From a virus, in the IMG/VR virus record IMGVR_UViG_3300045918_000470, positions 13,798-77,797 of that record: DNA of 64,000 nucleotides; one strand, given 5' to 3'. Shown here in pieces: positions 46,132-60,900 of this stretch (positions within the stretch are counted from its first letter, which is position 1; each line of letters starts with the position of its first letter). The position numbers were made by a program, and so were the translations under genes. The notes under the pieces are model-generated. The model saw only the letters and a program-made list of their open reading frames with translations, was not told where the DNA came from and did no database searches.

Positions 46132-46761
46132 TTATCCTAATGTACCAAAGACGGAATCTCTAGTTGTTGTTGATTTTGCTGCTTCTGTTTCTTGTTCTGT
46201 CTTGATGTCATTAAATACAGATGTTAGATTACTAAAATCATATTCATCATTCGGAATTAATTCTTCTACTTCATCACGTGGATTATAGTTATAGATTCTA
46301 CATTTTAACATATAGACATTTTTCCCGTTACTTTCTGTGAACATATTACTTAGACCTGCAACCTCATCCTCAATACCTGTAACCTCAAATATCTTACCTC
46401 GATTTACACGGATAAGATCACCTACACATTGCATAATATTTTTAAAATCTGTAACATCATATATAGATTTCATATATTCTTTTGAAACCATGAGGTTGAT
46501 CGAGTCAGTAAACTGTAATCCAAATTTACTAAACATATCACCGGCATTATCAAATGATTCTGTATTTTCAGGATATACCATGATAGGAAAAACATCATTT
46601 GAATTAGATTTTCTATAGTTAAATTCATTAAAGATAATATTTCTTCCAATATTATCAATCTTAAAGTATTCAACCTGGATACCAAACTTGTCAATGAACT
46701 CTTTGCTTTGTCTGCTGAATAAATTGTATTCATTTGGGCTTGAGTTAAAGTTCCATGCCAT
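46132..46761 (-). CDS. gp14: Neck protein (head closure)
   Basis: EFIDKFGIQVEY, GDMFSKFGLQFTD, GDLI...IFEV, VFG C-terminus. Confidence 0.88.
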   Translation of the reverse strand: MAWNFNSSPNEYNLFSRQSKEFIDKFGIQVEYFKIDNIGRNIIFNEFNYRKSNSNDVFPIMVYPENTESFDNAGDMFSKFGLQFTDSINLMVSKEYMKSIYDVTDFKNIMQCVGDLIRVNRGKIFEVTGIEDEVAGLSNMFTESNGKNVYMLKCRIYNYNPRDEVEELIPNDEYDFSNLTSVFNDIKTEQETEAAKSTTTRDSVFGTLG

Positions 46762-46854
46762 ATGTACTCCTTCTTTTAGTTTATTTATAATTTAATCTAT
46801 TTCAAAGGTTCATTGTGTTATAATGTATTACACATTTATATATGAAGGAAACAT

Positions 46855-47244
46855 ATGTCAGTAGACACAAAATATAACCACCTACGTAATGGTACATTAT
46901 ATGGTGGAGCAACAATTGGTTGGTCAATTCAAGATGACGATACATTAATTACTGCATTAGCAAAATGTAATAATGTAGATCGTTTTGTAAAATCAGAAGG
47001 TAGAGTAATCGTTGATATGAGGATTAATAACTACATCGCTAATCCTGAAAAAAATACAAGCAAGTATGTTGCAGTTGTAACATTAGATGAGGTACGTGCA
47101 TTTTTGTATGAAAACTCCGAGCGTGTGTTCCCAGTATTAAATCGTGATGCTACTTTGCGAGCGATTGAGTCCGTCACGATGCGTGATTTTAATTATAATA
47201 CACATGCATTTATTACACAAGGTGTTTTTGACGAAATTCTTTAA
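46855..47244 (+). CDS. Hypothetical protein
   Basis: TALAKCNNVDRFVKSEGR conserved-looking phage motif; early promoter upstream. Confidence 0.6.
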   Translation: MSVDTKYNHLRNGTLYGGATIGWSIQDDDTLITALAKCNNVDRFVKSEGRVIVDMRINNYIANPEKNTSKYVAVVTLDEVRAFLYENSERVFPVLNRDATLRAIESVTMRDFNYNTHAFITQGVFDEIL

Positions 47245-47363
47245 TTTATAAAATCTATAAATAAAACATAAGTAGTTCTTAAGGTACATTGTGTTATAAT
47301 ACACGTACATAAAAAGAATAAACGAATTTTGTATCATGAATTAGTTTAAAACATTAATTTGTT

Positions 47364-47386
47364 TTTAAGCAAAGTTATGATATAAT
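47364..47386 (+). promoter_or_regulatory. Early promoter of tRNA array 1 (second copy at 47278-47300; late CATAAATA near 47392)
   Basis: tttaagcaaagttatgatataat. Confidence 0.7.
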
Positions 47387-47426
47387 GTTCACATAAATAA
47401 AAACAATAAACACATAGGAGAATATC

Positions 47427-47564
47427 ATGTTTGGTATCGAAACAAGCGCATCATCAACAATCGCAACATATCGTGATACCAGCATTATCTCTTATACATC
47501 TACGTCTGATATTACCGATGCTTCGGCATCATATGAGATTAACTCGGCGGAAGCCAACTCCTAA
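47427..47564 (+). CDS. Leader peptide 1 (45 aa) upstream of tRNA array 1
   Basis: AGGAG RBS; MFGIETSASSTIATYRDTSIISYTSTSDITDASASYEINSAEANS; hairpins immediately after the stop. Confidence 0.75.
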   Translation: MFGIETSASSTIATYRDTSIISYTSTSDITDASASYEINSAEANS

Positions 47565-47710
47565 CAGAAAGTTATTTTGACTTTCTGTGATGGAAAGTCA
47601 AAATGATTCCTCAAGCACATACACGTGCAAAATTAATCAATTTTTCTTTTCATCTTGGATAAAAGTGTCGTATTCGTTTACGGCGTTCCATATTCGTATG
47701 GTCTTTTTTC
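47565..47710 (+). promoter_or_regulatory. Competing hairpins and terminator-like element between leader 1 and the tRNAs
   Basis: Hairpins 47565-47587 and 47571-47607 are mutually exclusive; ccata-ttcg-tatgg plus T tract at 47688-47710. Confidence 0.55.
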
Positions 47711-47738
47711 TCAAGTTTTACTCAAACAACTTGTTCGT

Positions 47739-47828
47739 GGGCGGTTAATCAACACTAACTGGATAGGTGCATCGGCTGTAACCCGGTTTCTTTATGGACT
47801 CTTGGTTCGAATCCAAGGCTGCCCACCA
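47739..47828 (+). tRNA. tRNA-Tyr(GTA)
   Basis: ctGTAac loop, long variable arm, GGTTCGAATCC, CCA; extra bases before the D arm. Confidence 0.8.
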
Positions 47829-47836
47829 TCATATAT

Positions 47837-47911
47837 GTCACCATGGAGAAGGGGTTATCTCGTCACACTTTCACTGTGAAGTCAGGGGTTCAAATCCCCT
47901 TGGTGATACCA
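47837..47911 (+). tRNA. tRNA-Glu(TTC)
   Basis: Cloverleaf, ctTTCac loop, CCA. Confidence 0.85.
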
Positions 47912-47915
47912 AATT

Positions 47916-47990
47916 GGGGATATAGTATAATTGGGAATACATAAGACTTGCAATCTTGAGTCGAGGGTTCGAATCCCTCTATCTCCACCA
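47916..47990 (+). tRNA. tRNA-Ala(TGC)
   Basis: G3-U70 pair, ctTGCaa loop, CCA. Confidence 0.9.
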
Positions 47991-48003
47991 AGAATTTAAA
48001 AAT

Positions 48004-48078
48004 GGTCTTGTAGCTCAGAGGCAGAGTGCTCCGTTGTCAGCGGAAGGGTCGGGATTTCAAAATTCCTCAGGATCGCCA
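48004..48078 (+). tRNA. tRNA-Asp(GTC)
   Basis: ttGTCag loop, GCCA end. Confidence 0.85.
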
Positions 48079-48085
48079 AAAATAT

Positions 48086-48159
48086 AGTTCTATAGCTCAA
48101 TGGCAGAGTAATCCCTTGATAAGGGATAGACGAAGGGTCAGTACCTTCTAGAACTACCA
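48086..48159 (+). tRNA. tRNA-Ile(GAT)
   Basis: ttGATaa loop, CCA. Confidence 0.85.
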
Positions 48160-48164
48160 AACAT

Positions 48165-48257
48165 GGGCAATTGGCAGAAATGGAATAATTGCACTAGTCT
48201 TGAAAACTAGCAGAGCGTCAAAAACTCTTGTTGGATCGTACCCAACATTGCCCGCCA
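48165..48257 (+). tRNA. tRNA-Ser(TGA)
   Basis: ctTGAaa loop, long variable arm, GCCA. Confidence 0.85.
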
Positions 48258-48262
48258 AAATA

Positions 48263-48343
48263 TGTTGTTTGTAGTATAATAGTTATTACAGGAGAGAACA
48301 GTGGACACTCCAGATACGGTGCAATTCCGTCGAGCGACAACCA
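48263..48343 (+). tRNA. tRNA-like RNA with enlarged anticodon loop (His/GTG-like?)
   Basis: Acceptor, D and T arms and CCA intact; ggag-agaacaGTGgaca-ctcc anticodon region is abnormal. Confidence 0.5.
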
Positions 48344-48349
48344 AAATAT

Positions 48350-48425
48350 GCCGATTTAGCTCATTCAGCAGAGCAGTAGTTTTGTAAACTACAGGTGAGG
48401 GGAGCAAAGCCTCTAATCGGCACCA
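48350..48425 (+). tRNA. tRNA-Thr(TGT)
   Basis: ttTGTaa loop, CCA. Confidence 0.85.
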
Positions 48426-48504
48426 GATTGATTTTTATGAAGGGTCTATTTCTTAAATGAAAATCTTTCACAAAAGTTAATAAATTCATAGAATTTAATC
48501 TAAC

Positions 48505-48527
48505 TTTAAGCTATACTATGTTATAAT
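48505..48527 (+). promoter_or_regulatory. Early promoter of tRNA array 2
   Basis: tttaagctatactatgttataat. Confidence 0.7.
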
Positions 48528-48596
48528 GTCTGTACATAAAAAGAAAAACATAGTTTTTCAAAACATAAATAAAACAATAAAAACAAGGAGCACACA

Positions 48597-48767
48597 ATGT
48601 GTAACACAAGCAGCAACGTACAAAATGTTAATGTCAATGTATTAAATCGCAATAGCGTGCTCCGTGCTAGTCAACTGAATTTGGCAGGGTTAAGCTTAGG
48701 GCAAAATCAAGCAGTTCAAAGTTGGTTAAATACTTCTAATTCTCTTTTACAGAATACTTCAATCTAA
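48597..48767 (+). CDS. Leader peptide 2 (56 aa) upstream of tRNA array 2
   Basis: AAGGAG RBS; MCNTSSNVQNVNVNVLNRNSVLRASQLNLAGLSLGQNQAVQSWLNTSNSLLQNTSI; hairpin at 48774-48801. Confidence 0.75.
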   Translation: MCNTSSNVQNVNVNVLNRNSVLRASQLNLAGLSLGQNQAVQSWLNTSNSLLQNTSI

Positions 48768-48875
48768 GTTTTCTTTAAAGGGGATTTAGTTCCCCTTTAA
48801 ATGATAAACAAAAACCAATCATTTAAAACACTAAATTCTCTATTGTTAATTCAATTTTTTCTTAGAATTCTCAGT

Positions 48876-48963
48876 TCTCTACAGCGCGCAAGGTGTGCGA
48901 GGCGACTGTTAATCGTTTGGCGAGAGTTAAATCCGATGCTTGGTTCGATTCCAAGGTGGAGAG
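48876..48963 (+). tRNA. tRNA-Asn(GTT), long variable arm, no CCA, extended acceptor stem
   Basis: ctGTTaa loop, U1-A72, G73; flanks pair over 48859-48978. Confidence 0.7.
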
Positions 48964-48997
48964 CTGAGAATTCAAGAAATCTATTAGATAACTTCGC

Positions 48998-49070
48998 TCA
49001 AGAGTAGGCAAACTGGTATGCCAACGGTCTTTGAAGCCGTAGATTGTAGGTTCGAACCCTGCCTCTTGAG
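48998..49070 (+). tRNA. tRNA-Gln(TTG), no CCA, extended acceptor stem
   Basis: ctTTGaa loop, U1-A72; 20 bp perfect stem over 48985-49082. Confidence 0.75.
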
Positions 49071-49137
49071 CGAAGTTATCTATTTAGAATATAGGACGTA
49101 TTACTTTGAAAATGATAAATAAAGTATATATTTATCT

Positions 49138-49941
49138 AGGAACTACACTTTACATTATGATAACTTAATCAATAGAGCTAAAGAAAGAACTCTTGAAAGT
49201 TACACCGAATCTCATCATATAATACCACGTTGTTTAGGTGGTACAAATGATAAAGATAATTTAGTTGACTTAACAACAAGAGAACATTTTATAGCTCATT
49301 TGTTATTGTGGAAGATACATCCTAATCATTATGGTTTAGTTAAAGCTATTTCTATAATGTGTGTTCAATCTACTAATATGAACGAAAATCGTTCTTGTAA
49401 TAGAATGTATGGATGGTTAAAGGAAAAATTTTCAGAAGCTCAATCTTTATCTCAATCGGGTGATGGTAATAGTCAATTCGGTACTATGTGGATTCATAAT
49501 TTAGATTTAAAAGAGTCTAAGAAGATACCTAAATCTGATGAAATACCTTTAGGATGGAATAAAGGTCGTAAAATTAAATTCGATCTTGAAAATATAAAGA
49601 AAGAAATTAAAGATCAAATCAAAGAGAGAAACAAAAATAAACTTGAAGAAAAACTTCAAGAAAAGAGAAATTCTTTCCTAGATATATTTGAAGCTTATAA
49701 AGCTTATGGATACAAATATGTTATTGAAAATTTTGATTATGATAAATCTGAAGGTGTTTTATATTCAAAATTGAAAACTCTTTTTGGAGAATTTAAAAAA
49801 CAATATGAAGTGAAAATTGATAGATTTTATATTTGTCAAGAATGTAAATGTACCTTCACGAAAAAAGGGAAGTCTACAGATAATTTTAAATGTTGTAGTA
49901 GAAAATGTTCTGGTTTATTGAATAGACCGAAATTTGGATAA
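49138..49941 (+). CDS. HNH homing endonuclease, apparent start codon lost (AGG at the Met position)
   Basis: Frame is open from 49123: NYTLHYDNLI...ESHHIIPRCLGG...LTTREHFIAH; GNSQFGTMWIHN. Confidence 0.75.
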   Translation, partial: RNYTLHYDNLINRAKERTLESYTESHHIIPRCLGGTNDKDNLVDLTTREHFIAHLLLWKIHPNHYGLVKAISIMCVQSTNMNENRSCNRMYGWLKEKFSEAQSLSQSGDGNSQFGTMWIHNLDLKESKKIPKSDEIPLGWNKGRKIKFDLENIKKEIKDQIKERNKNKLEEKLQEKRNSFLDIFEAYKAYGYKYVIENFDYDKSEGVLYSKLKTLFGEFKKQYEVKIDRFYICQECKCTFTKKGKSTDNFKCCSRKCSGLLNRPKFG

Positions 49942-49946
49942 AATAT

Positions 49947-50023
49947 GCTCGTCTAGTGCAACGGTAGACGCATCAGACTTAAAATCTGTCCAGGTGTGGG
50001 TTCGAATCCCACGGCGAGCACCA
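49947..50023 (+). tRNA. tRNA-Leu(TAA), short variable arm
   Basis: ctTAAaa loop, CCA. Confidence 0.85.
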
Positions 50024-50034
50024 AAATTATAAAT

Positions 50035-50108
50035 GCTTCCTTAGTGAAATGGTATCACACCTTCCTTCCAAGTAGGAGTCGTCGGATCGTTACCGACAGG
50101 ACGCACCA
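50035..50108 (+). tRNA. tRNA-Gly(TCC)
   Basis: ctTCCaa loop, CCA. Confidence 0.8.
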
Positions 50109-50110
50109 AT

Positions 50111-50185
50111 GCCAGATTAACTCAAAAGTAGAGTGTTTCCCTTACAAGGAGAAAGTAGTAGGAGCGTTACCTACATCTGGTACCA
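50111..50185 (+). tRNA. tRNA-Val(TAC)
   Basis: ctTACaa loop, CCA. Confidence 0.85.
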
Positions 50186-50191
50186 AAAAAT

Positions 50192-50267
50192 GTTCCTGTA
50201 CTCCAACGGCAGAGGGAATCGGCTCAAACCCGATATAGTGATGGTTCGAATCCATCCAGGAACACCA
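50192..50267 (+). tRNA. tRNA-Leu(CAA), short variable arm
   Basis: ctCAAac loop, CCA. Confidence 0.85.
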
Positions 50268-50275
50268 ATAATTAT

Positions 50276-50361
50276 GCTCGAGTGATGGAACGGAATACAT
50301 ACTGGTCTTAGAAGCCAGCGCTCTTAGAAGATTGTGGGGTCAGGACCCACCTCGAGTACCA
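50276..50361 (+). tRNA. tRNA-Leu(TAG)
   Basis: ctTAGaa loop, long variable arm, CCA. Confidence 0.85.
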
Positions 50362-50367
50362 AAATAT

Positions 50368-50451
50368 GCATAAATGGTGGAACGGTATACACATTGGTCT
50401 AAGAAGCCAACGCCGAAAGGATTGAGAGTTCAAGTCTCTCTTTATGCACCA
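50368..50451 (+). tRNA. tRNA-Leu(AAG)
   Basis: ttggt-ctAAGaa-gccaa, long variable arm, CCA. Confidence 0.85.
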
Positions 50452-50460
50452 AAAATTTAT

Positions 50461-50536
50461 TCCGGTGTAGTCAAATAGTAAGGACGGGTAGCTGTTAACT
50501 ATCACAATGCAGGGGCGGAACCTGTCACCGGAGCCA
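50461..50536 (+). tRNA. tRNA-Asn(GTT)
   Basis: ctGTTaa loop, GCCA. Confidence 0.85.
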
Positions 50537-50543
50537 AAATATA

Positions 50544-50615
50544 TGTTGATTAGCTTAAGTAGCAAAGCGGTGGATTGCAAATTCATGACCATCCGTTCGA
50601 TTCGGATATGGGACT
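50544..50615 (+). tRNA. tRNA-Cys(GCA), degenerate acceptor stem, no CCA
   Basis: ttGCAaa loop, T arm atccgTTCGAttcggat, U discriminator at 50615. Confidence 0.6.
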
Positions 50616-50687
50616 ATCCTACATATAACTAGCCTTCTCGTGGCGTAGGGTGTAATTAGGTCAATAGACTGAAACTAGTAAGTTATA
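50616..50687 (+). ncRNA. HDV-like (theta-type) self-cleaving ribozyme candidate
   Basis: P1 atcctac/gtagggt, P3 gcc/ggc, L3 ttctcgt, P2 tataacta/t(a)agttata; starts right after the tRNA discriminator. Confidence 0.6.
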
Positions 50688-50768
50688 ATTTTGCTAACTA
50701 AGTAAAGGATAGATAATAGTAGTTCGCTTATAAATAATAGTATATATACTTTTCGGAGATAGAATACT

Positions 50769-51542
50769 ATGGATTATAAACGAACTTACGACCTATTGGT
50801 TTTACGAGCACAAAACAGAGTTAACAACGGATACACAGAAAATCACCATATCATACCTGAGTGTATGGGTGGTTCAAATGATAAAACCAACATGGTCAGA
50901 CTAACAGCTAGAGAACACTTTGTTGCTCACCAACTTTTAGTTAAAATATACCAAAAAGAGTATGGACTGATTATAGCGGTAAACATGATGTGTATAGGTC
51001 AAGAGGAACGTAAAAGAGCCAACAACCGTATGTATAGTTGGTTACGTGAGCGTTTTGTTAGTGAACAAAGTAGAAACCAAACAGGTGAAGGTAATTCGCA
51101 GTTCGGAACTATGTGGATTCACAACTTAGAGGAACAAGTAAGTAAGAAGATTCCTAAAGATGACCTACTTTTTTGGGAACAACAAGGTTGGGAACGAGGA
51201 CGGGTAGTCAATTTTACAAACAAACTACTTTCGATTAGAGTTAAAGCGGAAAAAGAAGCTCGTGTTATTGAGGAAAAGGCGTTGAAAGTCAAAGAAAAAC
51301 TAAGACTGAACAAGGCAAATATAGTTAAAAAACAAAAACTATCCTCGGATAGAAAAATTTTAGCTGAAGAGTATTATTGTATTTACCGAGCGGTAGGATT
51401 TGTAGAGTTTACGAAATTAACAGGTTACAGCAAATCTCTTGAATGTTTAATTATGTTCTTTAAGCGAAATGTAGAACATTATGTATCATTTGACCATAAA
51501 GAAGTAAAAAAAAAAAGGAAAGTAAATCAATCGGGTGATTGA
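50769..51542 (+). CDS. HNH homing endonuclease
   Basis: MDYKRTY...ENHHIIPECMGG...LTAREHFVAH; GNSQFGTMWIHN; 3' end overlaps tRNA-Ser. Confidence 0.88.
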   Translation: MDYKRTYDLLVLRAQNRVNNGYTENHHIIPECMGGSNDKTNMVRLTAREHFVAHQLLVKIYQKEYGLIIAVNMMCIGQEERKRANNRMYSWLRERFVSEQSRNQTGEGNSQFGTMWIHNLEEQVSKKIPKDDLLFWEQQGWERGRVVNFTNKLLSIRVKAEKEARVIEEKALKVKEKLRLNKANIVKKQKLSSDRKILAEEYYCIYRAVGFVEFTKLTGYSKSLECLIMFFKRNVEHYVSFDHKEVKKKRKVNQSGD

Positions 51543-51607
51543 AACAGTTTGCTAAACTGTGTGTACCTTAAATGCGGTATTCGGGTCGGTACCGATGCTT
51601 TCCTCCA
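51517..51607 (+). tRNA. tRNA-Ser(GCT)
   Basis: acagt-ttGCTaa-actgt, long variable arm, CCA. Confidence 0.8.
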
Positions 51608-51622
51608 TATCCAAAACTTTAC

Positions 51623-51699
51623 GCTCTGTTAGCTTAGTGGTCTAAAGCAGTCGGCATATAACCGACAGACTGTGGGTTCGATTCCCACACTTCCCGCCA
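51623..51699 (+). tRNA. tRNA-Ile(TAT)-like, acceptor stem largely unpaired (pseudo or chimeric)
   Basis: gtcgg-caTATaa-ccgac; gctctgt/acttccc mismatched. Confidence 0.55.
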
Positions 51700-51704
51700 G
51701 ATAT

Positions 51705-51782
51705 AGGGTATTAGTTCAATGGTAGAATAACGGATTCCAAACCCGTAGATCGTTTTGGGTTCAATTCCCCGATACCCTGCCA
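51705..51782 (+). tRNA. tRNA-Trp(CCA)
   Basis: ttCCAaa loop, GCCA. Confidence 0.8.
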
Positions 51783-51814
51783 AATATAAATTAAATAAAA
51801 AAGAAGGATAAACG

Positions 51815-52273
51815 ATGTTTAGTGATAAAGAGTTACAGGGCATTTTTGACTATATCAATAATAATCCCGAAGCTAAGATTTACTTAGGTTGTGACTCTCT
51901 GAGATCTAAACATAAGAAAGTTAAATTTGTAACAGTCTTAGTCGTTTATCAAAAAGATAAATCAAAAATTTTTAAGAACATCATTTACGAAAAAATAACT
52001 GATGCAAAATTATCTCGTCCATTTAATCGTATGATGAGGGAAGTACAATCTGTAACAGAATTGTATATGTTGTTAGAAGATGTGTTGATATACAGAGACT
52101 TTGAAATTCATATCGACGTATCGCCTGATCCAATAAATGGTTCTAATGTTGCATACAACTCGGCAAAAGGAATGGTTTACGGAATGACAGGTGTAGAACC
52201 TGTATGTAAACCAGACTCGTGGGCAGCATCACATTGTGCCGATAGATTCACTAAAGATACAAGAAAGCGTTAA
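51815..52273 (+). CDS. RNase H-like YkuK/DUF458 family protein
   Basis: IYLGCDS, RMMREV, EIHIDV, NGSN, KPDSWAASHCAD. Confidence 0.8.
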   Translation: MFSDKELQGIFDYINNNPEAKIYLGCDSLRSKHKKVKFVTVLVVYQKDKSKIFKNIIYEKITDAKLSRPFNRMMREVQSVTELYMLLEDVLIYRDFEIHIDVSPDPINGSNVAYNSAKGMVYGMTGVEPVCKPDSWAASHCADRFTKDTRKR

Positions 52274-52327
52274 TTCTTTAAGGTTATTATAAATATTTTA
52301 TTATACAATACACTTAAAGGATAAACA

Positions 52328-52774
52328 ATGGATAAGTTCAAAGATTACATCATTCCTAAAATGAATGAAGCTGGAGATTACAAAGTCTATATGATAGACA
52401 AAGAGTTTTGGCTTGCATATGGCGACGGTAGTGGTACAACAGCACAAGTTCCAAATATGGATAGTTTCTTAACAAATAAAAGTGGTGATAAGAATTACGA
52501 TAGTATCGTAGATAGTGTCACTAAGAAATTTGTAACATTTAATGAACCACAAATGACTAAGAAATCATCAGATAAGATGACTAAATATTCTTTGTACTAT
52601 TTACCAGCGTATAAACATTCCGATGTTAGACAAGGTAAGATTGAAGCATGGGGCGGAAACATCAACCCGTTTACAACTTATTACATGTTAGTAATTCAAG
52701 GTGAAAAGACAGATATTATTCAGTTTTTCAAAACAGCTGGTGAAGCAAAAGCTTACGTTAATTCACTTTCTTAA
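52328..52774 (+). CDS. Hypothetical protein
   Basis: 148 aa; MDKFKDY...MNE N-terminus. Confidence 0.65.
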   Translation: MDKFKDYIIPKMNEAGDYKVYMIDKEFWLAYGDGSGTTAQVPNMDSFLTNKSGDKNYDSIVDSVTKKFVTFNEPQMTKKSSDKMTKYSLYYLPAYKHSDVRQGKIEAWGGNINPFTTYYMLVIQGEKTDIIQFFKTAGEAKAYVNSLS

Positions 52775-52952
52775 GTGTTTTGGGTTTATTAGTAAATCCC
52801 GCTCAGTCAAAAAACGATTAGTAATCAGCGCTTTAGCGGGAACCGTAGAAGTCTCAACTATAATAAACAGAGGGAATTGGCGGAACAGTTATGATGTTCT
52901 GGAAAGGGATACCACCACGATAATATAAAAAATCGGACAAAAACATCACTAT

Positions 52953-53027
52953 GCCGTTTTAGCTCAATGGATAGAGTACGGGTCTACGAAACCTGTGATA
53001 CTGGTTCGAATCCAGTAAATGGCACCA
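52953..53027 (+). tRNA. tRNA-Arg(ACG)
   Basis: ctACGaa loop, CCA. Confidence 0.88.
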
Positions 53028-53127
53028 AGTTCTTATATTAAATTTTAATGGAGATGTAATATAAGCACTTTATGTTGTATTAATGTTCATTGATGTATAA
53101 TGTTACATAACAATATGAAGGACTTAC

Positions 53128-53562
53128 ATGAAGAATGAATTAACACCGGAGCAATTATCAGATATCAATGTTATTGTAGAATCGCAAAAAGGTTTAGGAT
53201 TAATTTCTAAAGCAAAAGAATTTTATACTGGTGAACTAGATTTAGTTCAAGAAAAATATATCAAAGTGAATCTTCCTGATTCTGAAGAAAAATTCAAATC
53301 AGGGAATGGTGAAGGTATCTGGGCGTATCCAGTAACTGAAGCAGACGAACTCATCTGTAATAATGGTGGTGTTGGTGAAACCTTTGATGTATATACAATG
53401 AATGATTGTATCATGTATCCTTTTACATGTGCAACAATCATCAAAGTACGAAATACTGGTGCTGAAACCCGTCCAGTTCTTGATTACGATTGGATGGACA
53501 ATATCATTAAAGTATCTTCTAATGGTGAGTATTCGCTACATGAAATGCTTCAAGAGGCGTAA
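53128..53562 (+). CDS. Hypothetical protein
   Basis: 144 aa; GNGEGIW motif; early promoter. Confidence 0.65.
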   Translation: MKNELTPEQLSDINVIVESQKGLGLISKAKEFYTGELDLVQEKYIKVNLPDSEEKFKSGNGEGIWAYPVTEADELICNNGGVGETFDVYTMNDCIMYPFTCATIIKVRNTGAETRPVLDYDWMDNIIKVSSNGEYSLHEMLQEA

Positions 53563-53571
53563 GCCTCACAT

Positions 53572-53641
53572 GCCGATACAAAAGGATAGAATGAGACTTC
53601 GAATCTCTAGTATGCAGGTTCGAATCCTGCTGTTGGCTCCA
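53572..53641 (+). tRNA. tRNA-Arg(TCG), truncated D arm
   Basis: ctTCGaa loop, GGTTCGAATCC, TCCA. Confidence 0.6.
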
Positions 53642-53668
53642 AACTTTATAATAAAAATTAGGTGTGAT

Positions 53669-53878
53669 ATGAATATTAAAGAAATGGTAAAAGATAACAA
53701 ACAAGTCATTTTTGAATTCTATAGGAAGAGTGAATTGTGGTACAAAACTGAGTGTGGTTTTATGTTCCCTGTCCCTATAGAAGATTGTGGTGATGGAACA
53801 TTTTTACCTAAAGATAAAGCTATGATGTTTATGCGATATATTCGTAAACAGATTGAACAATTAAAAGATGAAACATGA
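53669..53878 (+). CDS. Conserved hypothetical phage protein
   Basis: LWYKTECGFMFPVPIEDCGDGTFLPKDKAMMFMRYIRK; start ATG 53669. Confidence 0.7.
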   Translation: MNIKEMVKDNKQVIFEFYRKSELWYKTECGFMFPVPIEDCGDGTFLPKDKAMMFMRYIRKQIEQLKDET

Positions 53879-54186
53879 AAACACTAAGAGAGAAATTCTT
53901 AATCAATTCTGAAGATACCGGTAGATTTATCGTGACATCAATTAGAACTGGTAAGAAATATTTTGTAGAAGCAATAGGTGACCCACATATTGAATGGGGT
54001 TCGGTAGACCAATCAACTGGCAAGTTTAATGTCAAAAAAGGTTGGAAGAAAAACAAAGGTTCTATAGAGAAAGAAGAATCTATGATTAACACAGAAAATG
54101 GATTTGAAAAGATTCATGACCTCAAAGCTGGTGAAAGTCCGTTAATTTATATAGATTCATTAGATTCTAAATACCCAACAAAATAA
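53875..54186 (+). CDS. Conserved hypothetical phage protein
   Basis: DTGRFIVTSIRTGKKYFVEAIG...WG...GSI...ENGF. Confidence 0.7.
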   Translation: MKTLREKFLINSEDTGRFIVTSIRTGKKYFVEAIGDPHIEWGSVDQSTGKFNVKKGWKKNKGSIEKEESMINTENGFEKIHDLKAGESPLIYIDSLDSKYPTK

Positions 54187-54304
54187 AGGTAGTTGATATG
54201 TCACAGCTAAACGCAGTCTAAAGAAAAGAATTAAAAACCATATCCTATATAACTCTGGTATATCTATCAATGACAAGCGAGTTATAAAAGGTATTGGTAA
54301 GTTT

Positions 54305-54529
54305 ATGGATTCACAAGGTTTGTCCTTAATATTCATTTTAGATTTATTGAACAATGAAAATTGTCTAGTTGACTGGGTTGATTTCATTGATTATACTATA
54401 GAAAAGAAATGGAATACAACTCAGACATTTTCTAAAATCGAAGAAGCATTAGTTGATGTATTTGGTCGTGATTACACTGAGCAGATACTTCTTAGACTTA
54501 GATATTACTTAACAAAAAAATATAGTTAA
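54305..54529 (+). CDS. Hypothetical protein (5' end possibly frameshifted; frame open from about 54197)
   Basis: Track ORF; the upstream ATG at 54198 is out of frame. Confidence 0.45.
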   Translation: MDSQGLSLIFILDLLNNENCLVDWVDFIDYTIEKKWNTTQTFSKIEEALVDVFGRDYTEQILLRLRYYLTKKYS

Positions 54530-54688
54530 TTTTTATTAGATTATTGCGATACCACTTAATAAATATTTAAGTTACGATGTGTTATAATGTACTTTTAGAT
54601 AACAATATAAGGATTAAATCATGAAGGCGAAAACTGAAACCTAAGTTACCTTGACGAAAGTTAAAATTATGGTAACACGAGGTTCAAC

Positions 54689-55480
54689 ATGAACGGATTG
54701 TGGAAAGAGAATGTAGGTGGTTGGAATCATAAAGATACCAGACGAAAAAAACAAACACGTAACAACATCTTCCGAGATAAGGGTCGTGCGTTACTTAAAG
54801 TTTACGATGCTAAGACTAAAATGGTTACTGAAAAATGTGACCATAATATCTACCGTCGTGAAAATGAACAAGTTATAGTATATAAGCCTCGTGCAATGAA
54901 ACCTTTGGTTCAAGTCACTAATGCTTATAAAGCTTTGATTGAATATATCTCTGGGTATAAAGAAGTGTTCTATGAGATGAAACACACTATTGGAGAAGAA
55001 GTAATCGTTCGTACATATAGTAGAATGGATTCTATTACCAAGATGAAATATGTTACTATCTATTATGATGAGAATGAAAAATTTTACTGGCGTAAAACCA
55101 TGTATGATGTTAAAACTCGTCTACCATTAGAGAAAGTTTTGAAACTCGATAGAACACAAAGTAGAAGTTTGAAAATGATTTCTCAAAACAAACTCTCACT
55201 TGAGGTAAAACTCGATTGGGAGAAAGAGAAAAAGTATAGAGAAACAGAACATATCAGCGAGTTTTATACTTATGATATTAAAGAATACCTTTACGGAAAA
55301 CTTCTTCCTGATTGGAAACGCTATACATTATACAATGATGGGAAGCGTCGTAAGATTGGTCAAGAGATTGCAAATGGCACTGATAGAGCTATCATTCGTG
55401 ATTGGATATCTAAAGGTGATTGGGATAAAGTTATCTCAACTCATGCATATTCAAAAAGCATTTCTTGGTTCGTTCATTAA
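54689..55480 (+). CDS. Hypothetical basic protein
   Basis: 263 aa ORF with GAGG RBS. Confidence 0.65.
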   Translation: MNGLWKENVGGWNHKDTRRKKQTRNNIFRDKGRALLKVYDAKTKMVTEKCDHNIYRRENEQVIVYKPRAMKPLVQVTNAYKALIEYISGYKEVFYEMKHTIGEEVIVRTYSRMDSITKMKYVTIYYDENEKFYWRKTMYDVKTRLPLEKVLKLDRTQSRSLKMISQNKLSLEVKLDWEKEKKYRETEHISEFYTYDIKEYLYGKLLPDWKRYTLYNDGKRRKIGQEIANGTDRAIIRDWISKGDWDKVISTHAYSKSISWFVH

Positions 55481-55722
55481 TCTTATTTTAAGGTTATTAT
55501 GATATAATACATGTATCAAAAAGAAAACAAATAGTTCCTCATTGATTGAGGAATTAGTTAAAATATTTAATTGATTTTTAAGGTTATGTATGATATAATA
55601 CATATACAAAGCAGGAAATTGTAACGAGTGCATTTAGATGTATTGTTTACAATTTCCTGACCATGATAGTGAGGACTAGCTATCCCAATATCCGTCAGGC
55701 AATTATAGTATATATTTGTTAT

Positions 55723-55798
55723 CATGATTGTAAGCTCAGTTGGTTAGAGCTATCGGGTAAACTCCGATGTGCGTGGGTTCGAGTCCCATTAATCTTGT
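55723..55798 (+). tRNA. tRNA-like RNA with non-canonical anticodon loop
   Basis: D arm agctcagtttggttagagct, T arm gtgggTTCGAgtcccat; loop gtaaact; no CCA. Confidence 0.45.
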
Positions 55799-56000
55799 CG
55801 ATAACTCAAAAAACGTCTGAATATGCATAAGGTGAGGTACAAGTAGCCCTGCATTGTTAGAAGATATGCGAAACATGAAAAAGCGTACATAATAACCTAC
55901 GAGTGTGATGGTGCATACCTGGCATTGAGTTGGGAGGTTGTCGGGATCGAAGCCGACATAGGTGAAATTTGTACGTAATATCATGAACAATGTGAGAAAT

Positions 56001-56051
56001 AGGTAACATACAGCAATCACACCCAATTTTATGGAAAAATAGCGTTACCTG
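56001..56051 (+). ncRNA. CAGCAA stem-closed element 1
   Basis: aggtaac-ataCAGCAA...gttacct. Confidence 0.6.
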
Positions 56052-56066
56052 ATAATGTTTTAGATT

Positions 56067-56135
56067 AGGAAATATTCAGCAAAAAATATTTAAATATCAA
56101 ACTCAAACTTTGAAGCTAAAATAAAAATTTCCTGA
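56067..56135 (+). ncRNA. CAGCAA stem-closed element 2
   Basis: aggaaat-attCAGCAA...atttcct. Confidence 0.55.
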
Positions 56136-56154
56136 TCTAAGACATTTATGTCTG

Positions 56155-56333
56155 AACGTGTCAAAAAAGTAATTATAAACGATGGAAGTGCTTTCTTAAA
56201 TGATGCACACGCCTTAAACATACACTAGCAGTAGCGTTATCGACGGATAGCAAATACAAAGTAGTAGGTCGATTTTACAGTCAGTGTCCTAGGAAACGCT
56301 AGATGGTCAATATGATTACTTTTTTGACACGTT
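56155..56333 (+). ncRNA. Putative structured RNA closed by a 23 bp stem
   Basis: aacgtgtcaaaaaagtaattata / tatgattacttttttgacacgtt. Confidence 0.5.
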
Positions 56334-56335
56334 AT

Positions 56336-56396
56336 AGAAAGCATACAGCAAATCAAACAAACTTTCACTTTTAATGAAAATAAGATCGCTTTCTGA
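56336..56396 (+). ncRNA. CAGCAA element 3 with Lys(TTT) anticodon stem-loop
   Basis: agaaagc-ataCAGCAA...tttca-ctTTTaa-tgaaa...gctttct. Confidence 0.6.
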
Positions 56397-56403
56397 TTTA
56401 TAT

Positions 56404-56480
56404 TGCAGGGTAGAGCAGTTCGGTAGCTTGCAAGGTTCATACCCTTGAGGTCACTGGTTCAAATCCAGTTCCTGCGTCCA
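56404..56480 (+). tRNA. tRNA-Met(CAT), initiator-like body
   Basis: gcagggtagagcagttcggtagc, ttCATac loop, CCA. Confidence 0.8.
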
Positions 56481-56484
56481 AGAA

Positions 56485-56578
56485 GGTAAAGTCGTCTAAC
56501 TGGTTAGGACGGTTCCCTTAAGTGATATTCGTATTATTTAAGGGAACAATGTGTGTTCGAACCACACCTTTACCAACA
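56485..56578 (+). ncRNA. tRNA-shaped RNA with anticodon loop replaced by a 16 bp UUCG hairpin
   Basis: ggtaaag/ctttacc acceptor, D and T arms; gttcccttaagtgata-ttcg-tattatttaagggaac. Confidence 0.6.
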
Positions 56579-56652
56579 TATGATAAGATTAATTTAAATC
56601 CTTAATAAGGTTTTAAGGTTCTTTACTGTATAATACATATACAAATTATTAT

Positions 56653-56730
56653 GCCCAGTTAGCTAAGCGGATTTAAAGCGTCGAGTTGCAACCTCGAAGA
56701 TCGGGAGTTCAAATCTCTCACTGGGCTCCA
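56653..56730 (+). tRNA. tRNA-Cys(GCA)
   Basis: ttGCAac loop, TCCA. Confidence 0.85.
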
Positions 56731-56804
56731 TTGTATATTTTTATGTTCATAAATTGAACATAAAAATATTCAAAACGTTAAATTGAATATAAAAACCTTC
56801 AAAA

Positions 56805-56919
56805 TTGAACCATACAGCAACCCAAAACTTTGTGTCGGACGTGCAACTCGTTCCTCTCCACCATCTTATATGGAGAGGTAGATCAGGTAGTCGACCAAAA
56901 GTGCAAAAATCGGTTTCAG
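56805..56919 (+). ncRNA. CAGCAA element 4 with permuted tRNA domain (YrlA/Y-RNA-like)
   Basis: T arm ggacg-tgcaact-cgttc, closed acceptor stem ctctcca/tggagag, then a D-arm-like segment. Confidence 0.6.
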
Positions 56920-57245
56920 ATATACATGAATAATCCATTAATATAAGGATTATTCATGACCTTCAAATCACACCTTTAAAACAAAGACCTCCTTTTCAAA
57001 AACAATCAAGTAAAAATGTTTAAAACATCAGCCGGTTCCGATAAATGTACTAGGTTACTCCTGATAAAATTGCACAAGCATATTCACGTTTAAAATTCGG
57101 TCCTAACAAAGGAAGATCATTTATACTCGAAGATGCACGTCATCAAAAATTTGATGGGTTTTTCACGCATCTTTGAATACAAACGGGGTTTGTAGGTTAT
57201 ATTAAGTTTATTATGATATAATATGTGTAAGATAGAAGGATTAAT

Positions 57246-57659
57246 ATGAATATTATACCGGCAGTTCTCATTGGTAAACAATTTGATGTTCCTGAGTTTG
57301 GATTTGATATAAACGAGTCATTGTTAATGACTGAAGAATGCATACAAAATAAGTACGGTTTTATATTATGGACATTCATTAAGATGGGACATATAACAGA
57401 TCAGTATTTTCTTAATTATGTAAATGATGCAGTCAAAAACATTGAAAAATTTAAACCATCAACATATAGTGAGTTTATTGTTTGTGTGAATCCACTAACA
57501 AACAAAAATTTTGGTTGTATAACTGTTGGTATATCATCTATCAGAACACCAGATCATGAATTTTGGTTAGGTGTATGGACGTATATTCAGAATCCTGGAT
57601 TGTTTACATACAGATATGAGGATAAGATTTATCGTCTTATGCCTGAATTAAAACTATAG
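57246..57659 (+). CDS. Hypothetical protein
   Basis: 137 aa; early promoter and RBS. Confidence 0.6.
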   Translation: MNIIPAVLIGKQFDVPEFGFDINESLLMTEECIQNKYGFILWTFIKMGHITDQYFLNYVNDAVKNIEKFKPSTYSEFIVCVNPLTNKNFGCITVGISSIRTPDHEFWLGVWTYIQNPGLFTYRYEDKIYRLMPELKL

Positions 57660-57667
57660 AGGCACCT

Positions 57668-58207
57668 ATGAAATTCAAGAAACTAATATTTGAAAGTTTT
57701 GATATTGTACCTATTACCGAAAAAAGACTTAATAAATCAGATATAATTAAAATTATCTCTTCTAAATTAAGAGAACAAAAAAATTCTGATTATGACATAG
57801 AATATACAATCAATGTTTTAGATTCATATAAATTTTTATTCGGTTATAGAAAAACAATAAACAATAATGATTATCTGTTTATGTATAATAAAAAAATGAA
57901 CTTTTTTGAACTTCATTTTTTTTATCTTGATGATCTCGAATCAAATGGTGAAGATATTCAAGCTCAAGATAATAGTATTAATGTGTTTTCATACATGATG
58001 AGTATATGTTTAATATTGTTAAAAGATAATAGACCCGTTAGGATAATATCCCCTAGTAAGAAGAGAACATTATTTTATACAAAAATATCTAATAAAATAA
58101 TTAAAAAATATAATTTAGATTATATTGCGGTTATTAAGGACGATTGTATAGAATTTCTAAAATCAAAGGGAAAAACTGATATTGTGGAATCATTTTTGCG
58201 AAAGTAA
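57668..58207 (+). CDS. Hypothetical protein, possible internal head protein
   Basis: MKFKKLIFE N-terminus; very AT-rich. Confidence 0.55.
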   Translation: MKFKKLIFESFDIVPITEKRLNKSDIIKIISSKLREQKNSDYDIEYTINVLDSYKFLFGYRKTINNNDYLFMYNKKMNFFELHFFYLDDLESNGEDIQAQDNSINVFSYMMSICLILLKDNRPVRIISPSKKRTLFYTKISNKIIKKYNLDYIAVIKDDCIEFLKSKGKTDIVESFLRK

Positions 58208-58260
58208 AAATGATTTAAGTTTATTATGATATAATTGTTATATTAATTAGAAGGAAAGAT

Positions 58261-58755
58261 ATGAAAACTCAAGACTCAACAAAAGAAGTAATCCGTAATG
58301 CAATCGATGAATTAATCATTGATTTATTGGAAACACAAACACCGTTTACCCTTGTGGTGTCGAGCAAAAACTGGGATTATGCGTTACCTGATCGTTTAAA
58401 AAATGAGCAAGCGTTCATGATACAAATCCAAGAGCAATCACTAATTGAAAGTGATTATGATGGTGAGTATATTACTATCAGAACACAATTTGATGGCATT
58501 GATAACTCGTTGACATTATATCCACAGGATGTACATGCAATTTTCGATATTGATATGAAATCACCAATTCTCATCAAACCATTTTATGATGAACCAACAA
58601 ACGTTGCATTGGAAAAACATATTACATCAAATCCGTTGAAGAATTTCAAACCAGAAGAATTGACACCTGGTGTCAAGCATAGTCTTGATTGTTTCATCAA
58701 AGGTAATCCTGAGATGTTTACGGAGGCAACAGGAGTACAAGATGGCGAAGTATAA
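58261..58755 (+). CDS. Hypothetical protein
   Basis: 164 aa; early promoter at 58214-58235. Confidence 0.65.
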   Translation: MKTQDSTKEVIRNAIDELIIDLLETQTPFTLVVSSKNWDYALPDRLKNEQAFMIQIQEQSLIESDYDGEYITIRTQFDGIDNSLTLYPQDVHAIFDIDMKSPILIKPFYDEPTNVALEKHITSNPLKNFKPEELTPGVKHSLDCFIKGNPEMFTEATGVQDGEV

Positions 58756-58960
58756 AGTTGGTACTAAATGTATCGTTGGGTTTTATCAGAATATTCTTCT
58801 TGATATTACAGGAATAACTAAAGATAAAAAACGTTATATAGTAACATTTACTGTTCAAGATCCTTTTGCATCAAGAAGTATCTATGAGTTTCCTATAAAA
58901 GATTTCGATATGATGTTCAGTGTTGCACGATTAAATGTTTTCTTGAGATGCAATTATTAA
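58742..58960 (+). CDS. Small hypothetical protein (MAKYKVGTKC)
   Basis: AGGAG RBS; similar N-terminus to the next ORF. Confidence 0.55.
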   Translation: MAKYKVGTKCIVGFYQNILLDITGITKDKKRYIVTFTVQDPFASRSIYEFPIKDFDMMFSVARLNVFLRCNY

Positions 58961-59010
58961 TCAATCTTTAAGAAATGTTATGATATAATACAATATAAGA
59001 AGGATTGAAA

Positions 59011-59196
59011 ATGGCAAGATATAATATTGGTGATAAATGTTCTATTAATGGTAAAAAAGAAACAGTATGTATAATCAAAGATATTGTTGATGATGGATAC
59101 AAATATGTTGTAGAATTTATCTACACAGATTCTACATCACAGTTTAATATCTCTGTTATCAGTTTTGATGATGCTTATACTAAGCACAGATCTTAA
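59011..59196 (+). CDS. Small hypothetical protein (MARYNIGDKC)
   Basis: Early promoter and RBS; similar to the 58742 ORF. Confidence 0.55.
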   Translation: MARYNIGDKCSINGKKETVCIIKDIVDDGYKYVVEFIYTDSTSQFNISVISFDDAYTKHRS

Positions 59197-59659
59197 ACCA
59201 GTGATAAACATCTATTGGCATAATCATCTTCTGCGCTCGTTCGATCAGGAAGATGAATTACGTGCAATGAACGCATGGGAATTTTTTAATTCATTCCTTT
59301 TAAAAGAAAAACTTAAATTGAAACATGAATAAATTATGGTAGGTTCATGAGGTCATTCCTCATTAAAACGTCCTTTAAACTCATCCCTTGGGGAGTTGCC
59401 AAAATTACAGATTGTTTACGACATGGACAAGATGTACTCACTTTCAAAGTTTTATTTCAGAACAATCTCCACTTACCAAATGTAGGCAACAACGAAAGTT
59501 AGTTGAGGAGTGGCTAATATGCATTGCCGTAATTGCACTATTGTTTGTAAGAACAATTATTAAAGACTATCGGAATCCGTTTAGGACGTAGAACCCAAGG
59601 AAGAAATTCACGAGGTGATAACCGTAAAACCGTTGGCAGTTTTTAGTCTGCCTTCAAAC

Positions 59660-59737
59660 GGGTTGATAGCATAATCGGTTAATGCCATCGTCTCATAAAC
59701 GGTAGAAGGAGCGGTTCGAATCCGCCTCGACCCACCA
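59660..59737 (+). tRNA. tRNA with CAT anticodon (elongator Met or Ile2)
   Basis: ctCATaa loop, CCA. Confidence 0.8.
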
Positions 59738-59739
59738 AT

Positions 59740-59837
59740 GGGAATATAGTGTTGATAGTTTAGCGACTTTGGATAACACTGCGTAATATCAGCTGTATGT
59801 ACGCCAATGTGAGTTCGAATCTCACTATTCCCGTCCA
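59740..59837 (+). ncRNA. tRNA-shaped RNA with expanded D loop and extended anticodon arm
   Basis: gggaata/tattccc acceptor, gtgagTTCGAatctcac, TCCA; no canonical 7 nt anticodon loop. Confidence 0.5.
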
Positions 59838-60132
59838 AATATTTCATTCAGTACATAGAGTCGTTCAGTGTATTGATAGGATATTTGTTAGACAGTTTGA
59901 CAACGAATCATAAGTAATGAAAGATTAACAAGCAATTGAGGGCACTTTCAACAAGTTACTTAGCTGATTCCATGTGAAGATACATTTAAATCACATGGAA
60001 GCACGGGCTTATATCCGAAAGTTAGGCATAAAGCATTTTAATGATAGTTTTAGTAAAAAATGGAGTTTAACTATAAAACTCAATTACACTCGTCCTCCTC
60101 TGTATATCAGGAGCAAACGATGGGTGGATTAC

Positions 60133-60208
60133 GCCCAATTAGCTTAGTGGTTAAAGCAGTCGGCATATAACCGACAGATCATAGGTTCAATTCCTACATT
60201 GGGTTCCA
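60133..60208 (+). tRNA. tRNA-Ile(TAT) with A33
   Basis: gcccaat/attgggt, gtcgg-caTATaa-ccgac, TCCA. Confidence 0.7.
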
Positions 60209-60265
60209 TTCACAATTACCTCACAATCTTATGTTATAATATATCATTCACAAAAAGGATGTATT

Positions 60266-60541
60266 ATGAGAAAAGTTATTTTAGCGTTAATGTTCTGTGT
60301 ATCGTTATTTGCATATGATACCAGTAAATGTATTGCATGTCATGGAACAACATTTGAAAAACATGCATTAGGAAAATCTGCAGTTGTCAAAGATATGAGA
60401 CATCAAGAAATTGAGAAATCACTTCTAGGATATAAGGCAGGTACGATGAACAAGTATGGTATGGGTGCATTGATGAAAGGTCAACTAGCAACTGTATCAG
60501 AAAAAGATATCAAAGACATTTCAAAAAGTATTGGAAAGTAA
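60266..60541 (+). CDS. Periplasmic cytochrome c553-like protein
   Basis: Signal peptide, CIACH heme motif, FEKHALGKS, YGMGALMKGQ axial Met region. Confidence 0.9.
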   Translation: MRKVILALMFCVSLFAYDTSKCIACHGTTFEKHALGKSAVVKDMRHQEIEKSLLGYKAGTMNKYGMGALMKGQLATVSEKDIKDISKSIGK

Positions 60542-60761
60542 GTGATATTTAAGCTTCATTATGATATAATACATCATAAACAAATTAAAAGCAATCATTA
60601 ACCAAACTATGTAGTCGGCGCCGACGAAACAGAATGAGATTGCACTCAACTTATCGAGTTTCTCAATTAAGGTCCAGGCCGATGGGATATAGATGAGCTT
60701 CTGGTAATGAAGTTACCTGCGTGGAGAGCAACCTCGGATTGCGGACACGGCCTATAAAGTT

Positions 60762-60900
60762 ATCACAGAAAACATACAGCAACCCCTAAATGAAAATCAC
60801 CTTTTAAGTGAGCGATCCGGGTTCGAATCCCGGCGGTGCGGTTATACCAAACTGTAGTTTAACGGTAAAACACTAAAATTCAAAACCTGTTTTCTGTGAT
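60762..60900 (+). ncRNA. CAGCAA element 5 with Lys anticodon loop and permuted tRNA domain
   Basis: 13 bp closing stem; tcac-ctTTTaa-gtga; ccgggTTCGAatcccgg; closed acceptor; D arm tagtttaacggtaaaac. Confidence 0.65.

Follow-up and report, generated by a model that had tools for sequence, protein, structure and literature searches.

What does a short open reading frame (ORF) do when it stands directly in front of an array of phage tRNA genes? The question is raised by a stretch of 64,000 nucleotides (nt) of viral DNA (hereafter, the window), positions 13,798 to 77,797 of the IMG/VR record IMGVR_UViG_3300045918_000470. The window makes up the final 64 kb of a viral contig of 77.8 kb, with a G+C content of 33%. 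It carries structural genes of the T4 type (portal, gp23-like capsid, baseplate wedge, and neck), and its source is an uncultured T4-like phage. At 47427-47564 lies an ORF of 45 amino acids (aa), leader 1, that is written almost entirely in the amino acids of the tRNAs encoded behind it. We favor, with a probability of about one half, the reading of leader 1 as a multivalent, ribosome-sensing element by which a tRNA operon is gated.

A Short ORF Is Written in the Amino Acids of the tRNA Array behind It

The transcription unit that contains leader 1 (unit 1) is made up of the following elements:

47279..47300, + strand: promoter P1 of unit 1, TTAAG-N12-TGTTATAAT, with an extended -10
47365..47386, + strand: promoter P2 of unit 1, TTAAG-N12-TGATATAAT; conserved in a related phage lineage, L008, at 17657-17679
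47416..47420, + strand: ribosome-binding site (RBS) AGGAG, 6 nt 5' of the ATG
47427..47564, + strand: leader ORF 1 (L1), 45 aa, with its own RBS, between the promoters and the first tRNA (47743)
47743..48425, + strand: tRNA block 1, with Tyr(GTA), Glu(TTC), Ala(TGC), Asp(GTC), Ile(GAT), Ser(TGA), His-like(GTG), and Thr(TGT)

A first-pass annotation, made from the letters of this DNA, had described a promoter, an AGGAG, a 45-aa ORF at 47427-47564, hairpins at its stop codon, a UUCG hairpin with a T tract, and eight tRNAs. All of these are present in the sequence. ARAGORN with default settings calls six of the block 1 tRNAs (Glu, Ala, Asp, Ile(GAT), Ser(TGA), and Thr(TGT)); Tyr(GTA) at 47743-47828 and His(GTG) at 48263-48343 were called under relaxed thresholds only and were missed by Rfam. 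The P1 core with the downstream GTACATAAAAAGAA is found only at unit 1 and before a second leader described below. Around the RBS, TAGGAGA is invariant between the window and L008. Leader ORF 1 matched no Pfam family.

The residues of leader 1 include S11, T7, I6, A6, Y3, E3, and D3, and K, L, V, and Q are absent. We scored how many of its residues belong to the amino-acid set of block 1. Thirty-nine of the 44 residues after the initial Met are in the set, compared to a fraction of 0.467 expected from phage proteins (binomial P=6.8e-9). Leader 1 ranked first among 283 six-frame ORFs of 35-70 aa, with 0.886 of its residues in the set, and the next best ORF reached 0.69. When 44-aa windows were slid along the phage proteins, none of 18,085 reached 39 in-set residues; the maximum was 31. 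The proposed match between leader and array is thus confirmed, and it is extreme among ORFs and protein windows alike.

A match at the codon level had also been proposed, and it held in part. Nine of the 11 Ser codons are TCN, and block 1 carries Ser(UGA). All six Ile codons are ATY, a bias that is not significant when taken alone (0.7^6 = 0.12), and six codons fall outside classical reading by the array, as detailed below.

A Second Leader Matches Its Own tRNA Block

A paralogous unit lies directly downstream:

48506..48527, + strand: promoter of unit 2, phage promoter motif
48597..48767, + strand: leader ORF 2 (L2), 56 aa, with N12 L9 S9 V6 Q6 G2 C1 W1
48876..51782, + strand: tRNA block 2, with Asn, Gln, Leu(TAA), Gly(TCC), Val(TAC), Leu(CAA), Leu(TAG), Leu(AAG), Asn, a Cys-like tRNA, Ser(GCT), pseudo-Ile(TAT), and Trp; the Val(TAC) anticodon was read by eye

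The 5' untranslated region (UTR) of unit 2 is similar to that of unit 1, with AAGGAG as its site. Forty-six of the 55 post-Met residues of leader 2 are in the set of its own block (P=5.6e-11). The two leaders partition reciprocally over the two sets: with Ser excluded, the counts are 28:3 versus 7:37 (Fisher P=8.6e-11). Six of the nine Ser codons in leader 2 are AGY, versus 26% in the genome, and block 2 carries Ser(GCU). Both leaders are free of Lys and Pro, and no Lys or Pro tRNA was seen in the window. Among the short ORFs led by a Shine-Dalgarno sequence in 46800-64000, no further one resembles a matched leader.

The 5' UTRs of leaders 1 and 2 (47387-47426 and 48528-48596) have a block in common, CATAAATAAAA(A)CAATAAA...AGGAG. 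In strain contigs the leader UTR runs into a different ORF (loose ends at 47402 and 47412), suggesting that it is a portable expression cassette.

Relatives Keep the Content of the Leaders

Protein searches returned homologues of leader 1 (P0010-P0013). Three have 45 aa and are 84, 82, and 71% identical to it; a distant homologue, L1', has 41 aa and 31% identity, with 34 of its 41 residues in the set. P0010, P0011, and P0012 (71-84%) and L1' all keep the composition, and the homologues of leader 1 span four further lineages. Homologues of leader 2 (P0015-P0017) are 47-57 aa long. Motifs are shared within each family: NRN.VLR..LLNLAGL and SLLQNTS[IK] among the homologues of leader 2 and ISYTS among those of leader 1. 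The frame is open in nine homologues of the two leaders despite indels and 31-64% identity. Leader 1 thus looks translated, judging from its conserved RBS and from a frame that is kept through indels in five lineages.

At the DNA level, the relative is the L008 lineage, four IMG/VR contigs that are identical in both leader units; its major capsid protein (MCP) is 80% identical. Its leaders are L1' and L2', and the layout of its unit 1 is the same: promoter, AGGAG, ORF, and hairpins at the stop are followed by Tyr, Glu, Asp, Ala, Asp, Ile, Ser, Thr, and further genes. Its unit 2 precedes Asn, Asn, Val, Cys, Gly, Gly, Leu x3, Gln, Leu, and Trp. The upstream 129-aa protein or its alignment, used as a query, found no related loci in viral or metagenome contigs, and a back-translated leader pattern had no match in viral contigs.

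We next looked at which residues change. The 45-aa forms of leader 1 vary at 14 positions, where 13 of 16 alternative residues are in the set; random nonsynonymous changes would give a fraction of 0.466 (P=0.005). Chemically, many of the replacements are radical (S/Y, T/I, A/E, and S/I). Related-strain contigs differ from the leader 1 ORF by 11 nonsynonymous and 2 synonymous codon changes, and two TCN codons became GAA by three base changes. Indels in the strain contigs are several in the flanks, with none listed within either leader ORF. The 170 nt 3' of the leader 1 stop are almost invariant among strains that differ at ~15% of the ORF positions.

The first-pass annotation had proposed that leader composition should track array content in related phages, and two differences go in this direction. 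The leader 2 of the relative contains no AGY codon and has Asn (AAY) where the window has AGY Ser, and no homologue of tRNA-Ser(GCT) was found in 18.5 kb of the DNA relative. The relative's block 1 has extra Tyr genes, and L1' has six Tyr versus three in the leader 1 of the window. Because a second unit is matched, because replacements stay in the set, and because AGY codons co-vary with tRNA-Ser(GCU), these results support the view that selection holds leader composition to a match with the tRNA block that follows, the content apparently being kept rather than the peptide.

Synonymous codon use in the leaders is unlike that of the phage genes, with rare codons preferred (P=0.007, 0.005, 0.10, and 0.0004 for L1, L2, L1', and L2'), and the G+C content at third codon positions of the four leaders is 0.30-0.41 versus 0.20 in the genome. 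Rare codons in the leaders fit slow-codon sensors; weak selection on codon use would also fit.

Two more distant loci, L022:2534-2650 (G004) and L023, reverse complement (46% capsid identity), contain a promoter-like TGTATAAT, an AAGGAAG, a 7-aa ORF (MLSPIKG), and a strong hairpin directly before an array. The array reads Pro, Thr, Met, Gln, Gln, (Leu, Gly), Phe, Ile, Lys, Lys. MLSPIKG has six residues out of seven in the set of this array but is too short for a test.

The RNA after the Stop Codon Is Predicted to Adopt Exclusive Folds

The RNA between leader 1 and the first tRNA was folded by independent single-sequence predictions of the window and L008, as indels misalign the helices in the MAFFT alignment for RNAalifold. 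The predicted elements, together with those of unit 2, are:

47564..47588, + strand: hairpin A (segments 1:2), which starts on the last base of the stop codon; -11.5 kcal/mol (L008 equivalent, -10.4)
47573..47605, + strand: hairpin B (segments 2:3), exclusive with A and with the 3:4 helix; -14.0 kcal/mol (L008, -11.8)
47589..47655, + strand: long 3:4 hairpin with a C-rich, G-poor apical part; -19.2 kcal/mol (L008, -16.2)
47688..47712, + strand: UUCG hairpin with T tract; 5 bp, -3.0 kcal/mol
47712..47733, + strand: small hairpin before tRNA-Tyr, also in the relative, where the stem letters differ
48736..48826, + strand: unit 2 switch; 48736-48749, inside the ORF, pairs with the 5' arm of the hairpin that follows the stop (48771-48802), whose 3' arm has an alternative partner in 48817-48826

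The mutually exclusive hairpins that had been noticed at the stop are borne out. A and B share one strand, B and 3:4 share another, and this topology recurs in L008 with different letters. Both sides of the helices change from the window to L008: GAC/GUC becomes GUC/GAC in hairpin B, and GCAC/GUGC becomes GUCC/GGAC in the apical stem of 3:4. Among strains, the 3:4 helix is nearly invariant. Compared to shuffled sequences, the folds have z=-4.3 and -3.2. Hairpin B of L008 is predicted to form once segment 1 is masked. Hairpin A would lie within the footprint of a terminating ribosome, and this geometry suggests that the choice of fold depends on the ribosome. The loop of 3:4 (47607-47646) contains 10 C and 3 G (9 C and 5 G in the relative), and its C-rich segment is predicted to be paired in the ground state and free when B forms.

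In unit 2, the post-stop hairpin is predicted at -16.1 kcal/mol versus -11.8 kcal/mol for the competing duplex with ORF codons 47-51. In the unit 2 of the relative, the competing duplex reaches -14.0 kcal/mol, and the minimum free energy fold adopts that alternative state. The unit 2 hairpin has a GC core followed by UUUAAAU. Its pattern was found in viral contigs of the G001 type only; in metagenome contigs it was found at 30 unrelated loci, without tRNAs or leader-like ORFs.

The UUCG hairpin with its T tract had been taken for the terminator of unit 1, a role that the analysis does not support. At -3.0 kcal/mol it is weak, it has no counterpart in the 80%-MCP relative L008, the length of the T tract differs among strains, and it stays uncoupled from the switch in the masking folds. 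For comparison, the capsid-gene terminator of the phage has a stem of -15.6 kcal/mol followed by U7.

A Proposed Ribosome-Sensing Leader and Its Alternatives

How could such a leader work? Our model starts from the observed anatomy and from the composition match with its conservation and co-variation, and it adds translation of the ORF, an output step, and a polarity, all of which we infer. Leader 1 would be a translated, cis-acting ORF that reports the decoding speed for the amino acids of its own operon's tRNAs. The position of the ribosome while RNA polymerase makes the first 90 nt past the stop would pick one of two folds. If the ribosome is held up in the ORF, segment 1 would be free, and hairpin A and the 3:4 helix would form (the ground state). 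If the ribosome is at the stop in time, segment 1 would be covered and hairpin B would form, leaving the C-rich loop and the U-rich segment 4 single-stranded. The B state would lower transcription into the tRNA genes. The likeliest route for this output would be Rho entry or pausing at the weak U-tract site rather than a classical intrinsic terminator; Rho entry is the leading guess because the loop that hairpin B exposes is C-rich and G-poor. Slow codon reading would then lead to more of the tRNA block and good reading to less, a negative feedback on tRNA supply.

Extended to both units, this model becomes a per-block feedback on phage tRNA operons, which we propose tentatively and with somewhat less confidence than the sensing leader itself. 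Transcription would be proportional to the decoding slowness of the block's own amino acids. Spare tRNAs would be switched on in response to scarce or mismatched host tRNAs or to their cleavage by anticodon nucleases, and off once supply is restored, through an output step that is not a classical terminator.

Several observations weigh against a sensing leader of this kind. Six in-set codons of leader 1 (ACC x2, TCC, GCC, and AGC x2) are not classically read by the U34 tRNAs of the array, so the match is mainly at the amino-acid level. The array contains a His-like tRNA, yet leader 1 contains no His; L1' contains three Val, and its block has no Val tRNA. The co-variation of leader with array is suggestive, with few events in two DNA lineages. 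Relatives at 46% MCP identity have merely a 7-aa ORF before the array, and Vibrio phage phiKT1024 and T5 have ordinary small proteins before their tRNAs and no matched leader. No helix of the unit 1 switch has the form of a canonical terminator: GAUUCC follows B, UUGGAU follows 3:4, and A also lacks a U tract. Masking segment 1 in silico leaves the weak U-tract hairpin unaltered; simple folds of this kind give no coupling of the switch to that site. The sole pointer to Rho is the excess of C over G. The leader-peptide attenuator that the first-pass annotation had proposed therefore keeps its short, RBS-led ORF, its codon enrichment, and its exclusive helices, and it loses its intrinsic terminator in unit 1. 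Its tie to anticodon nucleases is likewise unsupported.

The same parts could also be wired in reverse. A ribosome keeping pace with RNA polymerase would then block an inhibitory fold or Rho entry (pyrBI-type coupling); the tRNA block would be transcribed only with a plentiful supply of its amino acids or charged tRNAs, and stalling would shut it off, as in a stringent-like check on charging. The first hairpin lies 0-7 nt past the stop in all four units, where a terminating ribosome would block it, but the structured ground state of unit 1 (A together with 3:4) is reached without a ribosome at the stop. The unit 2 hairpin is the most terminator-like element that we found (-16.1 kcal/mol, GC core, then UUU), and its palindrome also closes ordinary genes in unrelated metagenome contigs; the in-ORF antagonist beside it (48736-48749) nevertheless fits the classical logic, in which an upstream stall frees the antagonist and the hairpin is prevented. 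ORF 1 is itself C-rich and G-poor (C=12, G=5 in 47447-47486), and a stalled ribosome would bare rut-like RNA. Such wiring would amount to positive feedback on tRNA supply, without an obvious use for the phage, and we consider it unlikely.

It is also quite unlikely, in our view, that the leaders encode small functional peptides or that their translation merely stabilizes or couples the transcript, the hairpins being 3'-end protectors or RNase processing sites between mRNA and tRNA precursors and the likeness to the array a side effect of low complexity. Such a scheme would account for the missing good terminator and for post-stop RNA that is far better conserved than the ORF, as expected of a processing element. 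It leaves unexplained why each of two low-complexity peptides matches its own block to the exclusion of the other block (Fisher P=8.6e-11), and why radical replacements stay in the set and AGY codons track tRNA-Ser(GCU). The motifs shared among the homologues of each leader would suit a peptide, but the 31% identity of L1 and L1' is poor for a binding peptide, and there is no Pfam family. Very improbable is an untranslated frame that arose by chance in an unstructured 5' leader rich in C and poor in G (such as an entry site for Rho or an RNase) and that owes its composition to base constraints. C does exceed G across the ORF, but the two leaders differ in base bias and each fits its own array. 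The synonymous codon use unlike that of phage genes would suit a chance frame as well; against it stand a strong, conserved AGGAG at ideal spacing, the frame that is open in nine homologues despite indels and 31-64% identity, and a composition of leader 1 that is more extreme than that of any of the 283 six-frame ORFs.

Relation to Known Systems

Multivalent leader-peptide attenuators are well known from enterobacterial operons. The thr leader is rich in Thr and Ile and the ilvGMEDA leader in Ile, Leu, and Val; trp, his, leu, pheA, and pheST are further examples, and the leu leader uses rare CUA codons. The ribosome-sensing leader proposed here resembles them in having a promoter, an RBS, and a short ORF rich in operon-relevant codons, with rare codons used, and in the overlapping alternative helices that begin at the end of the ORF, so that ribosome position selects the fold. 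It differs in that tRNA genes are controlled rather than biosynthetic or synthetase genes, in that seven to eight amino acids are spread over a leader of 45-56 aa rather than one to three in a run, and in that unit 1 has no canonical intrinsic terminator among its alternative helices. Rfam found no leader family in the region. A Thr_leader match on the minus strand at 47047-47213 (27.5 bits versus a gathering threshold of 55, E=0.12) lies within the upstream gene and was taken as chance.

Like Rho-dependent tnaC (tna operon) and mgtL/mgtP (Salmonella mgtA and mgtCBR), the unit would let the ribosome on a translated leader choose between folds that hide or expose a C-rich entry site, and an intrinsic terminator is not needed. 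Those leaders, however, respond to free Trp, or to Pro charging and Mg2+, and the genes under their control code for proteins, whereas Rho is suggested here by C>G composition alone. Like T-box riboswitches, the leader would be a cis-acting RNA tied to the charging of specific tRNAs that sets readthrough. T-boxes, in contrast, have no ORF; they bind the uncharged tRNA themselves and regulate synthetase or amino-acid genes. The T-box model had no match in 46500-61000 at E up to 1.

The nearest published case that we found is the trn operon of Anabaena sp. PCC 7120, a long tRNA array that is induced under translational stress (PMC8421152) and has the repressor TrcR (PMC10272220). It is likewise an accessory tRNA array that answers impaired translation. 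Control there is at the promoter, however, through a repressor on direct repeats (PMC8421152, PMC10272220), and neither paper mentions a leader peptide or attenuation. No account of leader peptides or attenuation at phage tRNA genes came out of full-text literature searches, in agreement with the first-pass remark that none was known for phage tRNA arrays. The idea that the tRNA region of T5 holds codon-matched small ORFs was not borne out; the annotated small ORFs look like ordinary proteins.

The purpose of phage tRNA genes has been debated for decades, the main ideas being codon compensation and replacement of tRNAs destroyed by host defenses. If the sensing-leader reading is right, block-specific, regulated expression would show that the phage actively monitors tRNA supply, and each leader would reveal what its block remedies. 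Ribosome-mediated attenuation would then cover tRNA genes in addition to amino-acid and synthetase genes, and seven or eight amino acids in place of one to three, and the leaders would be compact natural sensors of decoding capacity. In uncultured phage genomes they also offer a way, from sequence only, of marking transcription units and of spotting tRNAs that were missed.

The Phage Genome and Its tRNA Region

Cultured relatives of the phage are distant. With tail-fiber and capsid proteins as queries, the best were Vibrio and Campylobacter myoviruses, the capsid protein being ~48% identical in the nearest, and blastn of the region versus cultured phages matched tRNA genes only. The window was found in wetland, pond, sediment, mat, and vent metagenome runs; RNA runs contain 5-7% of its words. 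The phage promoter motif TTAAG-N12-TGnTATAAT has 11 copies on the + strand of the window.

The tRNA region extends from 47.3 kb to the end of the window and contains ~27 tRNA or tRNA-like genes, every one of them on the + strand; HNH-like genes and other small genes interrupt the series. Three paralogous HNH-like ORFs of the homing-endonuclease type (49300-49941, 50769-51542, and 54689-55480) have 71-83% identical stretches in common (repeat families D7 and D10-D12). Two of the three lie within tRNA block 2 and split it, whereas the block has no such interruption in the 80%-MCP relative. At 55578-55722, before tRNA-Phe, a promoter is followed by a long perfect hairpin (AGGAAATTGTAA...TTACAATTTCCT) instead of a leader ORF, showing that the leader design is not used by every tRNA block here.

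Some of the tRNA genes are unusual. In the tRNA-like copy with anticodon TAT at 51628-51690, the acceptor stem is broken (Rfam matches positions 6-65 only); the copy is 87% identical over 47 nt to an intact tRNA-Ile(TAT) 8.5 kb downstream (60133-60208), of which it is probably a decayed duplicate. The tRNA-Asn(GTT) call at 48876-48964 spans 89 nt and has additional paired sequence and an insert resembling a long arm, unusual for Asn; a further Asn(GTT)-like gene of 73 nt lies at 50461-50533. A34 is found in Leu(AAG), Arg(ACG), and Phe(AAA), at 50368-50451, 52953-53027, and 55723-55799, respectively; it is expected for Arg(ACG) and unusual for Leu and Phe in bacteria and phages. Between the Trp and Arg(ACG) tRNAs, an RNase H-like protein (PF04308, E=3.5e-18) is encoded at 51815-52273.

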